A stretch of 64,000 nucleotides of DNA from an uncultured Candidatus Saccharibacteria bacterium (GCA_964643995.1 CAZXUJ010000003.1:65927-129926); one strand, 5' to 3'. Counted from the stretch's first letter, positions 7,349 to 13,214 are shown. Notes: generated from the sequence alone by a model not told the origin. Numbers and translations are program-made.

Positions 7349-8119
7349 ATGTATACTCTGCCCAAGAAGTATCTAGTATTTTTGATGCTTTTGACTATTT
7401 CTGCATATTTTGTACCGAGCACTTTTGCTACGACTAGTGTTTCGGTGTCTATTCCTATCGATGACCCTGACGCCACCGCTGGACATATCGTAACCTTAAG
7501 AAACGGCGTATATATTTTGAGCTTTTCAGCTCGTGAACCCGGCGTGTTCGGTGTTATTACAGACGATCCGATAATCTCAATTAATGATAGGTCCTTAACT
7601 AATTTCAAGTATGTTGTAACTTCAGGTGAGGTGAAAGTGAAAGTCTCTGGCATCAATGGGAATATCGAAGAGGGCGACTACCTCAGTGCTTCAAATTTAG
7701 CTGGAATTGGACAAAAGGCTTCTGGCAGTGGTCCAGTAATAGGTGTAGCTCTTGAAGACTATGCTCCTACAGACCCTAACGCTGTTAACGAGATTTCAGC
7801 ATTCCTAAATATTACCTCGGCCTTTGTTGGCGAGCGTCAAGAACAGGATCTCATTGGTTTGCTAAGAGGAGGTCTACAAGTTCCTTTCGTAACGCCGTTA
7901 ACCTCCTTTAGATATATTCTGGCGGCTTTGATAGCAATGGTCTCATTTTTTATTGGCTTTTCATCTTTTGGCAGGATATCTATTAATGGTATAGAAGCTC
8001 TTGGAAGAAACCCTTTGGCAAGTAGGCTTATAAAATCCGCAATAGTACTAAATTTCATATTTACGTTTGGGATTATGGCAGTAGGGTTAGCTATTTCATA
8101 TCTCATTCTGAGCATCTAA
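7349..8119 (+). CDS. Signal-peptide protein (~170-aa beta-rich ectodomain) fused to a C-terminal ATP synthase c-subunit-like helical hairpin. The conserved ion-binding carboxylate is replaced by Phe. An in-frame start further upstream at 7310 is also possible.
   Basis: First gene of the atp operon, directly upstream of atpF. The C-terminal 60 aa MVSFFIGFSSFGRISINGIEALGRNPLASRLIKSAIVLNFIFTFGIMAVGLAISYLILSI align without gaps to the Bacillus PS3/E. coli c-subunit loop and helix 2 ([39 protein letters not shown]), with RNP in place of RQP and F at the Glu/Asp position. N-terminus is MYTLPKKYLVFLMLLTISAYFVPSTFA. RBS AAAGGTAAG lies 10 nt upstream. Confidence 0.6.
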   Translation: MYTLPKKYLVFLMLLTISAYFVPSTFATTSVSVSIPIDDPDATAGHIVTLRNGVYILSFSAREPGVFGVITDDPIISINDRSLTNFKYVVTSGEVKVKVSGINGNIEEGDYLSASNLAGIGQKASGSGPVIGVALEDYAPTDPNAVNEISAFLNITSAFVGERQEQDLIGLLRGGLQVPFVTPLTSFRYILAALIAMVSFFIGFSSFGRISINGIEALGRNPLASRLIKSAIVLNFIFTFGIMAVGLAISYLILSI

Positions 8120-8123
8120 GATT

Positions 8124-8831
8124 ATGTTTACACTTGACTACACATCAATCTTCTTAATACTTCTCAATGCCTTTGTATTTGTTTTATTTATTTTTCTCAT
8201 TGTTGCCATATTTCAGAGTTACAAATCTAGTATTATCACGGAACAGGAGCTAGTGCGCCAGGACGCCTACAAAAAAGCCCTGGCTATTCTGGATAAGGCT
8301 CGTGACGAATCCTTACGTATGCTGAAGAATACTGAGTACTTAACAGATGACACTAAGCAGGTTATGAAAAAAGAATTTGATTCAATTGTTTCTAAGTTAT
8401 CCAATCAGCTTTCCACTGATTTATCCGAAACTATGAAGGAGGAGAGTATCCAAGGTGTTGCGTCTATTAGAAAAGTTTCGAAAGTAATTGAAGATAGTGC
8501 CTTTGACGAACTTAAAAAGTTTGAAGGTGTTTCTGAGTCTATGGAGAAGGAGGCATTGCGTGAGTTAGAAAACTTTCGTCAGGAGTTACATGCGGGAACC
8601 ATTCATAATGAAGAGGCAATGCAAGAACGTCTAAGCAAGGAGTATGAGAATGTACGCCAACGTCTCATTGACTACGAAAACGCTAAGATGTCACAGATAG
8701 ACATAAAGATTAAAACCATTTTTTCTCAAATGACCCGCGAGCTTTTTGATAAGTCTATTGATATTGCCACAAGTGAACAAATGGTTATGGAGGCCCTTTC
8801 TAAAGCAAAAAGAGAGAACATGTTCGTATGA
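8124..8831 (+). CDS. atpF: F0F1 ATP synthase subunit b (long, 235 aa)
   Basis: N-terminal TM helix followed by a long charged coiled-coil. Position in the operon is before delta. Confidence 0.8.
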   Translation: MFTLDYTSIFLILLNAFVFVLFIFLIVAIFQSYKSSIITEQELVRQDAYKKALAILDKARDESLRMLKNTEYLTDDTKQVMKKEFDSIVSKLSNQLSTDLSETMKEESIQGVASIRKVSKVIEDSAFDELKKFEGVSESMEKEALRELENFRQELHAGTIHNEEAMQERLSKEYENVRQRLIDYENAKMSQIDIKIKTIFSQMTRELFDKSIDIATSEQMVMEALSKAKRENMFV

Positions 8832-9286
8832 TAAAAAATGATTTTGCTACCAAAGCTGATCTGGACAGAATTCTTTACTCAATTGATAAATTTAAATTGG
8901 ATTTGTACACCTATAGCTCCAAAGAGTTGGAGCGTTGCTTACACTATCAATATGACATTAAGTTCAATGCTATTGTTCAAGGTGTTCTTGCAAAAAATGA
9001 AATTGATCTTGGTGATGAAAACAAAGTTACAGTAGAAAAGCTATTAAATGCTTTGTCAGTAGATCTCGCTGCAATTGAGATACTAGATATTACTATGTCA
9101 TTTTCTCCCTCAGCAAGATTTCTAAACATTTTACGCAATTGGGCATATGAAAATGTTACTGAGAATATTGTTCTTGATATTCATGTAGATCCTTCGGTTC
9201 TTGGGGGTGCTTCTTTGATTTATCGTGGGCGGTATCTTGACTTGACCATAAGTAATAAATTGAAAAGTTTTAACTTTAGTCTGTAA
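8828..9286 (+). CDS. atpH: F0F1 ATP synthase subunit delta (OSCP)
   Basis: 152 aa. Overlaps atpF and atpA by 4 and 1 nt. Typical position and OSCP-like C-terminus. Confidence 0.75.
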   Translation: MIKNDFATKADLDRILYSIDKFKLDLYTYSSKELERCLHYQYDIKFNAIVQGVLAKNEIDLGDENKVTVEKLLNALSVDLAAIEILDITMSFSPSARFLNILRNWAYENVTENIVLDIHVDPSVLGGASLIYRGRYLDLTISNKLKSFNFSL

Positions 9287-10743: not shown

Positions 10744-11597
10744 CATACATAAAAAAGGAATTGGAAACACTTTTATACCTAGAAGAAATTATTCAAGCAT
10801 ATGAAGAGATTGCATCAATACGTATGCAGAAAGTTAAAAAATCCGTTTTGTCTAATCGTGCTTTCTTGGACGGTATGCGTAAATTAGCTATAGAAGTCCG
10901 GACTTCCTACAAGAAAGAGCTTGCACATTTGCCTAAAAAAACTAATGGTAAATCTGTTGTAGTGTTTTTATCCTCAAACACTGGTTTATATGGTGACATA
11001 ATCAACAAAGTTTTTCGTGCTTTTATGACATACCTTGAATCGTCACCCAATTCAGATATTGTCATTGTAGGTAAAACAGGACGTAGAATGTTTGAGGTGT
11101 TAAATAAGTCATCGAGTTTTACCACACCTACTTATTTTGACCTTTCTGATAGCTCTACCGACAAGGAGAATATTGGTAAGCTGCTAAACTATGTAATTGA
11201 TTATAGCGATATAAAAGTATTTCATGGCCTGTTTATTGATATGCTTCGTCAAGAACCTATAGGACAGACTATGACAGGAGAACATGCTTTGGATGACTCC
11301 CGTGTAAAAGTGGCTCACCGAGAATATATATTTGAGCCCTCTTTGGAGGAACTAGTAGCATACTTTGAGCAAGAAATTCTTCGTTCGATGTTTAAGCATA
11401 GTGTACACGAATCCAATCTAAGTAAATATGCCTCCAGAATGATAAGCTTAGATATAGCAACTGAGCGTATAAATTCTAAAATAACTGAAGGTCGTATGAC
11501 ATTTCAGCGGGAACATCATCGTATTCAGAGTAGCAAGCAAAACGCCACTCTTGCGAGTATTTATGGGAGAATAAAACATGTCCGAACAACTAGGTAA
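10740..11597 (+). CDS. atpG: F0F1 ATP synthase subunit gamma
   Basis: 285 aa between alpha and beta. Conserved C-terminal gamma helix (...[22 protein letters not shown]). Confidence 0.85.
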
Positions 11598-12963
11598 AGT
11601 AACAAGTGTAAAAGATTTTGTTGTTGAGGTGATATTTAATGGTGACCTCAAACCCAAAGAAAAAGATATCTTATATGTTAAGGAAGACCCTTCTTTGTTG
11701 TTAGAAGTTTTTAGAGCAGTTGGTGTTGATAAATTCCTCTGTATTAGTCTTAAGCCTACTACCAAACTACGTAGAGGCACCGAAGTACTGAATACAGGTG
11801 ATACTTTGAGAGTTCCTGTAGGTAGCCAAGTCCTAGGAAGAGTACTGGATTTATTCGGGGAGCCCCTGGACGGGGGTGCTCCTATAGCAAGAGATGTTAT
11901 GACCTCGATCTATAAGTTTGATAGTAGCATTACCGATATTGCTTACAGTCAAGAGGTTTTCGAGACAGGAATCAAAGTGATTGATTTTTTTACTCCATTA
12001 CTTAAAGGTGGGAAAGTAGGGTTATTCGGCGGTGCTGGTGTAGGTAAAACAGTGTTATTAAATGAAATATTACACAACATCATTAATTTGAATAAGGAGA
12101 AAACGGTTTCGGTATTTGCTGGTATTGGAGAAAGAATAAGAGAAGGTCAAGAACTTTGGGCTAGTCTAAAAAGAACAGATATAATAAACAATGTCACCCT
12201 AATGTTTGGAACGATGGCCGATAACCCAACAATGAGGTTTCTCACTGCTTATTCCGCTGTAGCAGTGGCAGAATATTTCAGAGATAGTATGAATAAAGAC
12301 GTACTTTTCTTTGCAGATAATGCCTTTCGTTTTGCACAAGCAGGGAACGAGCTTTCATTGTTTATGGACGAGATTCCGTCTCAAGATGGTTACCAACCAA
12401 CCTTATTGTCTGAAATGTCAGACTTTCATGAGAGATTAGTCACCACCCCACAAGGACAAGTCACTACTATTGAGGCGGTTTATGTTCCTGCCGATGACAT
12501 CCAAGATTATGCTGTTCAAATGATCATAAACTTTCTTAACACCTCTATTGTTTTGTCACGTAAGGTTTATAGTGAGGGCATATTGCCATCAATTGATATT
12601 CTAGCTTCAAACTCTGCGGCACTAAGTCCAGATATAGTAGGAGAGGAGCATTATGTTATTGCATTAAAAGCGCAAAATGTCCTTAAACAGGCCGAATCGT
12701 TAGAAAGAATTGTTTCTTTGGTAGGTGAGTCTGAATTATCTCAAGAGGACAGATTAATTTATAAGCGTTCAAAAAAGATACGCAACTATTTTTCTCAAAA
12801 CTTCTTTACTGCTGAGAAACAAACAGGTGTAACAGGTGTATATGTACCTGTTAAAAATGTTATAACTGATGTTAGAGGCATCATTAACGGAGATTTCGAC
12901 GACATAAGTGAGGATAAATTCTTATACATTGGTGACACATCAAAAATAAAAGTACAAAAATAA
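11578..12963 (+). CDS. atpD: F0F1 ATP synthase subunit beta
   Basis: Walker [12 protein letters not shown]. DELSxxD-like motifs. Confidence 0.95.
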
Positions 12964-12971
12964 GATAATTT

Positions 12972-13214
12972 ATGTCATTCAACCTAACAATTCTAAGCCG
13001 AGATGGCCAAATCTTTAAAGGTGTTTGTTCCACGGTTACATCTTTCAACTCTGTTGGTGAGTTCGATGTATTGGAACATCATGCCAATTTCATTACCATG
13101 ATCAATAAATATGTAGTAGTGGATAAGAGTACTGCCAGTGAAAAGAAATTTTCACTAGAAAGGGGAGTGCTCTCCTCTAAAGGAGATACTGTTGAGGTTT
13201 TTATTCAGGATTAG
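12972..13214 (+). CDS. atpC: F0F1 ATP synthase subunit epsilon (short form, beta-sandwich only)
   Basis: 80 aa immediately after atpD. Lacks the C-terminal helical hairpin. Confidence 0.7.
   Translation: MSFNLTILSRDGQIFKGVCSTVTSFNSVGEFDVLEHHANFITMINKYVVVDKSTASEKKFSLERGVLSSKGDTVEVFIQD

Follow-up and report, generated by a model that had tools for sequence, protein, structure and literature searches.

The DNA analysed here is a stretch of 64,000 nucleotides (nt; 64 kb, hereafter the window) from a genome labelled as an uncultured Candidatus Saccharibacteria bacterium (GCA_964643995.1, CAZXUJ010000003.1:65927-129926). Positions 7349-13214 on its plus strand hold seven closely packed genes, spaced by 4-8 nt or overlapping, which form an operon of the F-type ATP synthase kind in the order ORF1-b-delta-alpha-gamma-beta-epsilon. 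The first of them, open reading frame (ORF) 1, encodes a signal peptide and a beta-rich extracytoplasmic domain fused to a membrane hairpin that resembles subunit c and has a phenylalanine in the place of the ion-binding carboxylate. This gene order had been proposed in a first-pass annotation made from the sequence alone, and it proved to be real: all seven genes were located, with delta, alpha, gamma, beta, and epsilon named by Pfam or NCBIfam and b by a family profile. The features of the operon, with protein positions in amino acids (aa), are as follows:

7349..7429, plus strand: ORF1, signal peptide, aa 1-27, likely cleavage between TFA and TT
7430..7894, plus strand: ORF1, extracytoplasmic part, aa 28-182, comprising a beta-rich domain (aa 30-158), a flexible linker and a short helix
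7895..8119, plus strand: ORF1, c-subunit-like hairpin, aa 183-256 and stop codon
8003-8014, plus strand: GRNP loop, aa 219-222 of ORF1
8051-8053, plus strand: codon of N235 of ORF1, the near-invariant Asn
8066-8068, plus strand: codon of F240 of ORF1, in the place of the ion-binding Asp/Glu
8124..8831, plus strand: b-like gene, 235 aa, divergent and elongated (family profile against PDB)
8828..9286, plus strand: delta (OSCP), 152 aa, divergent (PF00213)
9286..10743, plus strand: F1 alpha (ATP-synt_ab; NCBIfam F0F1 alpha)
10740..11597, plus strand: F1 gamma (PF00231)
11578..12963, plus strand: F1 beta (TIGR01039 atpD)
12972..13214, plus strand: epsilon, 80 aa, N-terminal beta-sandwich only (PF02823)

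For this organism the DNA examined is the window, and for related genomes it is the respective locus with flanks of up to 10 kb. Relatives of ORF1 were sought among genomes that each represent one GTDB species; at least 231 of these genomes encode one, and the best 80 loci were analysed. The gene order is identical in related loci wherever the contig is long enough. These best 80 loci are mostly labelled as WWE3, Levybacteria, Shapirobacteria, Amesbacteria or 'Patescibacteria', and some as 'Saccharibacteria' or 'Gammaproteobacteria'. Many of the operon-bearing records (L006-L085) are automatically labelled 'uncultured Candidatus Saccharibacteria' or 'Gammaproteobacteria'. Since their operon and synteny match those of WWE3- or Microgenomates-type genomes, these taxonomic labels look unreliable.

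Architecture of ORF1

ORF1 is a protein of 256 aa, for which AlphaFold2 gave a model with a mean predicted local distance difference test score (pLDDT) of 88.9, based on a 48-sequence alignment. The model comprises an N-terminal hydrophobic helix (aa 6-20), a beta-rich domain (aa 30-158), a linker that is poorly ordered and includes a short helix, and two hairpin helices at aa 183-220 and 222-255, in agreement with the earlier description of ORF1 as a signal peptide followed by a beta-rich ectodomain. Of 119 ORF1 relatives, 110 have a hydrophobic stretch at the N-terminus, and AxA-type sites occur in the 12 N-termini inspected; the N-terminus of ORF1 is a Sec-type signal peptide that is likely cleaved after A27. 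The attachment of the ectodomain to the N-terminal end of the hairpin, also put forward in the first pass, is compatible with the topology.

The ectodomain (aa 30-158) has a fold of the phage cement, decoration or preneck-appendage C-terminal type, and it shares the beta-tulip-type fold of phage cement and decoration proteins. Its identity to these proteins and to the C-terminal autochaperone of the phi29 gp12 preneck appendage is approximately 15-22%, with no match above a curated threshold. While the phage domains sit on a capsid or a tail fibre, that of ORF1 belongs to a cellular ATPase operon and is joined to a membrane hairpin.

Relationship of the hairpin with subunit c

The search of the last 70 aa of ORF1 for ATP-synt_C (PF00137) that the first-pass annotation had proposed returned nothing, and neither did single-sequence searches of ORF1 against Pfam and NCBIfam or of its last 70 aa against Pfam as a whole. 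The relationship with subunit c is visible only by family profiles and structure. When a profile of the ORF1 family was compared with all PDB sequences, the seven top matches were F-type c subunits, with E-values (E) of 1.4e-3 to 2.3e-2, and the printed alignments to the PDB c subunits were all in one register. Alignment of the family profile by hhalign with a profile of ten canonical c subunits, in whose sequences single residues may be wrong, gave a probability of 86.5-87.6%, an E of approximately 4e-6 and a score of 33.4, while reversed or column-shuffled controls reached scores of at most 14.5 and probabilities of at most 1.4%. This alignment spans 69 columns without a gap, which bears out the gap-free alignment claimed for this C-terminus in the first pass, and places the RNP of ORF1 (aa 220-222) on the canonical RQP, as does HMMER.

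In the reciprocal test, a hidden Markov model (HMM) of canonical c subunits was compared with 10,920 six-frame ORFs of the loci; the C-termini of the ORF1 family came first (best E 2.6e-5), and the best 60 match lines printed were all from this family. Six of 48 family members match Pfam ATP-synt_C, all below the gathering threshold, and the best score, that of a member with the long form described below, is 22.9 bits, under the cut-off of 24 bits. Several family members carry the JGI annotation COG0636 (subunit c/K). As in c subunits, ORF1 forms a hairpin of two transmembrane (TM) helices with both ends outside, and none of the loop residues G219, R220, N221, and P222 varies among the 48 family members compared. 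The cytoplasmic loop of canonical c subunits contacts gamma and epsilon.

The ion-binding Asp or Glu of canonical c subunits lies 20 residues past the loop arginine (position R+20), where ORF1 has F240, aligned to Asp61 of Escherichia coli. Among 182 unique hairpins of the family, R+20 is occupied by F, I, V, L or A in 171 and by G, S, C, T or M in the others, never by D or E. Acidic residues between R+9 and the C-terminus are found in these 182 hairpins at R+9 only, at the cytoplasmic interface. A further 143 cluster representatives have the same carboxylate-free pattern, i.e., about 325 sequences together. The first-pass observation that Phe replaces the carboxylate of ORF1, with no other buried acid, is hence upheld, and the alignment of relatives (182 and 143 sequences, none with D or E at R+20) makes the loss lineage-wide. 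To our knowledge, every characterised rotor of the F, V, A or N type uses a membrane carboxylate. Five residues before R+20, at R+15 of helix 2, the family has N in 175 and H in 7 of the 182 hairpins (N235 in ORF1). In helix 1 the GxGxGxG motif is absent, the family consensus being RYxLAALIxxxSFxxGFxSFGR, and the HMMER alignment opens a 6-residue gap at the place of this motif.

The fold, the loop and the profile similarity show that the ORF1 hairpin descends from subunit c. In functional terms, ORF1 does not belong to the c-subunit family: of two defining features that were tested, the carboxylate is missing and the curated score threshold is not reached.

Absence of subunit a and of a separate subunit c from the searched DNA

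Neither subunit a (PF00119) nor a stand-alone c gene was found in the window, in which ORF1 is the sole c-like ORF. Comparison of the eight longer multi-TM ORFs of the window with Pfam identified five of them, namely a cellulose-synthase-like glycosyltransferase, a PMT_2 glycosyltransferase, an ion channel, an M50 protease, and a sulfatase-domain protein; the other three (109-144 aa) had no match. About 80 related loci, with their flanks of up to 10 kb, contain no conserved multi-TM a-like gene beside the operon and no stand-alone c gene. The first-pass statement that atpB and a separate atpE are missing near the operon thus stands for the window as well as for these loci.

Two places in which subunit a might have been hidden were considered and rejected. 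The 4-TM gene at 15232-15864, approximately 2 kb downstream of the operon, encodes a site-2 protease of the Peptidase_M50 family, and the gaps of 1.0-1.4 kb that separate ORF1 in some loci from the divergent giant gene described below hold a Fic-like protein in L061 and ORFs of at most 88 aa in L008. The locus is not that of a complete F1Fo, as there is no subunit a in the searched DNA.

The oddity of this operon has been remarked upon before. Kantor 2013 described it in one sentence for a complete WWE3 genome, likening the putative c to a membrane protein of the OP11 and WWE3 ATPase operons (PMC3812714). Mahendrarajah et al. 2023 reported that approximately 30% of the sampled bacteria of the Candidate Phyla Radiation (CPR) are without genes for a canonical complex, mentioned 'minimal complexes', and noted non-canonical complexes in some CPR bacteria (PMC10656485), while Jaffe 2020 does not mention the ATP synthase. 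Our literature search found no analysis of the c-like fusion beyond the single sentence of 2013, and thus none since then. Four findings appear to be new: that ORF1 is homologous with subunit c, that the whole family has lost the carboxylate, that the ectodomain is phage-like, and that there is a conserved, domain-swapping link to giant fibres and helix-turn-helix (HTH) domains, which is presented below.

F1 and the stalks

The alpha subunit matches ATP-synt_ab with an E of 2.9e-69, and its best NCBIfam match is F0F1 alpha (429.7 bits). For beta, the Pfam match has an E of 8.6e-66, and the TIGR01039 atpD equivalog model gives 476 bits against a cut-off of 462.85. Gamma matches PF00231 with an E of 8.1e-26. 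Delta is barely above the cut-off of PF00213 (22.6 against 22.3 bits), and its orthologues match OSCP clearly in L002 and weakly in L004.

The window encodes the Walker A motif, the catalytic Glu, the Walker B motif, and the arginine finger of alpha, and a comparison of 70-72 family members shows these to be conserved. In the window, alpha has the Walker A motif GDKQTGKT and the arginine-finger motif SVTRVG, the latter found in all 70 family alphas, and beta has DNAFRF. Genuine beta ORFs of the family keep Walker A, GERxRE, and DNxFRF (64-66 of 72 counted). F1 is therefore, as judged by sequence, predicted to be catalytically competent.

Epsilon matches PF02823 only, over aa 3-78 (E 2.9e-10), and its C-terminal helical domain is absent. 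Epsilons of the family measure 80-112 aa (80 here, 83-112 in relatives), compared with approximately 130-140 in canonical bacteria, so the C-terminal domain is missing across the lineage.

The b-like gene gave no Pfam match as a single sequence. A profile of the b family, built from 14 orthologues, gave its best matches in PDB to b subunits of ATP synthases (E 5.9e-6 and 2.4e-5), spanning N-terminal and C-terminal parts, although coiled-coil composition raises the scores of such matches. The predicted protein has one N-terminal TM helix followed by a long helical stalk, and it is moderately secure that 8124-8831 encodes a divergent b subunit, approximately 70 aa longer than usual. No conserved charged residue was found in the TM helix columns of b across the family, for which reason this helix was rejected as a stand-in for subunit a.

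The divergent giant gene and its surroundings

The operon is preceded by a giant gene, which the first-pass annotation held to end at 7153; this is wrong, since it is a minus-strand gene with its start at 7151, divergent from the operon:

3..7151, minus strand: giant gene, 5' part, more than 2383 codons, running off the window start
7152..7348, no strand: divergent intergenic region with promoter-like and inverted-repeat elements

The giant protein consists of an N-terminal cytoplasmic MerR/HTH_17 domain (aa 20-70; Pfam MerR 41.6 bits, HTH_17 28.6 bits), one TM helix (approximately aa 128-148), and an ectodomain that is huge and repetitive. When the first 160 aa were used as an iterated profile, the same N-terminal domain was found in 69 of 85 loci; in 60 of the 85, the gene that it heads is large, divergent, and no more than 1.5 kb upstream of ORF1. 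This conserved link of the operon with the giant surface protein and the HTH domain had escaped the first pass. L008 contains a complete relative of 2216 aa, which looks tail-fibre-like and has Peptidase_S74, an intramolecular chaperone domain of tail fibres. At the nucleotide level, three diverged copies of a 300-nt repeat lie in the giant gene at 843, 2943, and 4602 (69-72% identity to the reference copy), along with a second repeat pair of 99 nt; the repeats correspond to a recurring protein block of approximately 100 aa (GETTGATDSGAYLVG...LAVDGDNDEIQLLVQGNGTQT).

In the intergenic region, a sigma-70-like promoter match for the giant gene runs from 7225 to 7197 on the minus strand (TTGACA-17-TATCAT, 11/12, a match to the consensus only). 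It is followed downstream by a predicted element, an 11-nt inverted repeat (TTACAAAAACC / GGTTTTTATAA) at 7165-7175 / 7187-7197. In L061, the Fic-like gene between the giant gene and ORF1 (3040-3975), of a kind seen in some Levybacteria-type loci, has a C-terminal HTH, and the catalytic His of its motif QPFSDGNGRLSR is replaced.

The Peptidase_M50 gene at 15232-15864 (plus strand, motif HEFAHA) lies beyond a secE-nusG-rplK-rplA cluster and has an equivalent in at least 16 related loci. Cleavage of the membrane-tethered HTH protein by this site-2 protease is conceivable. The window has another M50 gene, RseP-like, at 48205-49365.

Family breadth and long variants

Compared with 1.84 billion representative sequences, a profile of the hairpin matched 661 clusters (50% identity) at E values of at most 1e-3, and the hairpin is C-terminal in all 150 clusters listed. 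Nineteen of the best 145 retrieved sequences are 350-573 aa long instead of the usual 260 or so. In the eight long variants that were inspected (P0197, P0203, P0213, P0221, P0229, P0236, P0239, and P0245; 396-573 aa), the place of the signal peptide is taken by an N-terminal HTH_17-like domain with a long linker and an additional TM helix, ahead of the same ectodomain and hairpin.

The long form heads the same gene series in L086-L089, three of these loci having the full b-delta-alpha-gamma-beta-epsilon set and the fourth contig stopping after two genes. No divergent giant gene was found in the three long-variant loci with upstream sequence. Past epsilon, three of the long-variant loci have a gene with a signal-peptide-like N-terminus, directly after or overlapping epsilon, which exceeds 1735 aa in L088 and reaches at least 560 aa in L089, and of which L087 contains the first 31 codons only. 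We considered whether the HTH of the giant proteins and that of the long c-like variants are one sequence family, and rejected this: the profile of the giant N-terminus does not match the long-variant HTH, although both fall under Pfam MerR/HTH_17.

Depending on the arrangement, an HTH-plus-TM module is thus carried either by the fibre protein or by the c-like subunit. Such a domain swap argues for a single system comprising F1, the c-like subunit, the HTH domain, and the fibre.

Other genes of the window

An envelope-related cluster occupies 17318-24593 and includes a gene of 410 aa and a minus-strand gene of 692 aa. It also contains a cellulose-synthase-like family-2 glycosyltransferase (18492-20183), a PMT_2-type glycosyltransferase (20155-21654), and a two-pore-type ion channel with the motif TVGYGD (23754-24593).

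Comparison with known systems

With the canonical F1Fo operon (atpIBEFHAGDC) the present one shares the order c-b-delta-alpha-gamma-beta-epsilon, a beta that passes the atpD cut-off, matches of alpha, gamma, delta, and epsilon to F-type models, a b recognised by profile, and a hairpin with an R-(Q/N)-P loop. Unlike the canonical operon, it is without subunit a; its c-like protein is without Asp/Glu and GxGxGxG and carries a signal peptide and an ectodomain of approximately 130 aa; its epsilon has no C-terminal domain; its b is approximately 70 aa longer; and a giant protein and an HTH domain are linked to it.

The F1-like X0 ATPases of mycoplasmas combine F1-type alpha and beta with a non-Fo membrane sector and are presumed to serve a mechanical, non-bioenergetic task at the cell surface. 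Their types include the type 2 gliding motor (MMOB1660/1670) and the MIB-MIP-associated type 3 (MSC_0618/0619), and their clusters are extra copies beside a normal F1Fo, whereas the present operon may be the sole one of its genome. The NCBIfam models of these ATPases match alpha and beta here, but below their cut-offs (alpha 279/520 and 379/600; beta 393/570 and 352/850), and the canonical atpA and atpD models score higher. Moreover, the mycoplasma clusters are without homologues of b, delta, and c, while the present operon keeps all three. By analogy, the ATPase of the ORF1 operon would work most like these mycoplasma ATPases, yet it is not one of them.

The operon is also distinct from that of the N-type ATPase, as all alt_F1F0 scores are far below their cut-offs, there is no a gene, and the c-like protein is without a carboxylate. 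Minimal rotary ATPases of reduced symbionts, such as the A-type of Nanoarchaeum equitans, likewise have a gene set unfit for a canonical ion-coupled enzyme (PMC10656485). Those cases are losses of subunits; here, the losses (subunit a, the carboxylate, the epsilon C-terminal domain) are, unlike in the symbionts, accompanied by conserved gains (ectodomain, HTH, fibre linkage) and by strong conservation.

Proposed function and alternative explanations

As neither the carboxylate nor subunit a is present, rotation and ion flow would not be coupled by any known mechanism, and we infer that translocation of H+ or Na+ by the canonical mechanism is impossible. Therefore, the enzyme would be a motor that hydrolyses ATP. 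Since both stalks and the loop are kept, torque or strain presumably still reaches an oligomer of the c-like protein. The C-terminal domain of epsilon inhibits ATP hydrolysis in bacterial enzymes, and its loss fits an enzyme dedicated to hydrolysis.

We favour an ATP-driven F-type motor that is uncoupled from ions and tied to a surface fibre, an explanation which in our judgement stands at about even chances. It corresponds to one of the two readings offered in the first pass, a repurposed F-type complex without an ion path, which we prefer to the other one, canonical a and c genes elsewhere in this genome, because the arrangement is present in at least 231 species-level genomes with the F1 motifs intact. 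In the proposed mechanism, F1 (alpha3beta3) would hydrolyse ATP and thereby turn or strain gamma, epsilon, and the c-like oligomer. The crown of ectodomains would pass the mechanical work across to the outer face of the membrane, where it would act on, or jointly with, the giant tail-fibre-like surface protein, and the cytoplasmic MerR/HTH_17 domain would be part of the same system. A more specific version, in which F1 turns a carboxylate-free c-like ring and the crown holds or drives the giant filament for host attachment, penetration or movement, is speculative and on the unlikely side. If it were true, this ring-filament machine would have evolved independently of flagella, archaella, and the gliding motor of mycoplasmas.

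Several points weigh against a motor of this kind. Helix 1 is without the glycine packing motif of c-rings. With subunit a absent, the stator would be a single b helix without a known membrane partner. In the long variants, a ring meant to rotate freely would be crowded by the additional TM helix and cytoplasmic domain of every c-like subunit. Finally, regulation could be all that links the operon with the giant protein, as a MerR-type domain divergent to an operon is a classic layout.

The same membrane parts could belong to a non-rotary, membrane-tethered ATPase, in which the c-like protein would be an anchor or docking platform, and F1 with b and delta would power export, folding or assembly of the giant fibre. 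In place of a turning ring, such a complex is likened to the type III secretion ATPase complex FliI/FliH/FliJ. The operon is closely tied to a giant exported protein that bears the S74 intramolecular chaperone domain, and the ectodomain resembles the phage tail-fibre autochaperone (preneck appendage C-terminal) and cement domains. The missing ring-packing glycines of helix 1 count in the same direction, and the additional TM helix and HTH seen in long variants speak against free rotation. However, a machine that transmits torque needs just what is kept here, namely the invariant loop for contact with gamma and epsilon and the two stalks; the genes beside the operon include no export-gate homologue; and alpha and beta score far higher on F-type than on FliI/SctN models. 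A non-rotary ATPase is in our view unlikely.

If the link with the giant gene were regulatory only, a membrane-tethered MerR/HTH_17 factor, possibly released by intramembrane proteolysis, would control the ATPase operon, and ATPase and fibre would have no physical contact; this would be compatible with the favoured explanation of the ATPase itself. The layout mentioned above, with a MerR-family HTH divergent to the operon, is in line with such control, as are the promoter-like and palindromic elements of the intergenic region and the M50 site-2 protease gene that lies approximately 2 kb downstream in many WWE3-type loci. The fusion of an HTH to the c-like subunit and the position of a giant gene inside the operon in other lineages are, however, explained more easily by a shared assembly, and no operator was identified in the intergenic region. 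We hold an exclusively regulatory link to be quite unlikely.

An enzyme that still translocates ions, through a divergent or distant subunit a and a neutral ion site (e.g., the Asn/His at R+15 with Thr at R+19 and backbone carbonyls), appears very unlikely. An a gene may lie elsewhere in the genome, the search having covered 64 kb; all other subunits are kept, stator included; and the Asn of helix 2 is near-invariant (N in 175 and H in 7 of 182). Neutral-ligand Na+ sites occur in other transporters, which counts for an unconventional ion-coupled enzyme. On the other hand, known rotors use a membrane carboxylate, of which there is none in approximately 325 sequences, and no a-like gene was found within approximately 10 kb of the operon in about 80 loci or in the window. 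In addition, N235 lies five residues cytoplasm-ward of the canonical ion site, and the b helix is without a conserved charge that could replace the arginine of subunit a.

That the operon is a decaying remnant of an ATP synthase without function can hardly be true: these organisms have reduced genomes with reported losses of ATP synthase genes, and several subunits score below curated cut-offs, but the seven genes are intact, packed, and conserved in order in at least 231 species genomes, the catalytic motifs and the c loop are invariant, new conserved domains have been gained, and neither frequent frameshifts or stop codons nor relaxed selection was seen across the family.

Implications

Rotary F-type ATPases are defined by the coupling of ATP to ions through subunit a and the carboxylate of the c-ring. 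Here, a large conserved clade, comprising WWE3, Microgenomates-type, and related candidate-phyla bacteria, keeps all parts but subunit a and that carboxylate. If active as the ion-uncoupled motor that we favour, the complex would be a natural re-use of the F1 rotary engine outside bioenergetics, and the retained ring and both stalks would set it apart from the mycoplasma cases. Surveys that score the F-type ATP synthase by the alpha and beta genes alone would mis-score these lineages. The finding also bears on the energy management and the host contact of ultra-small, host-dependent bacteria.

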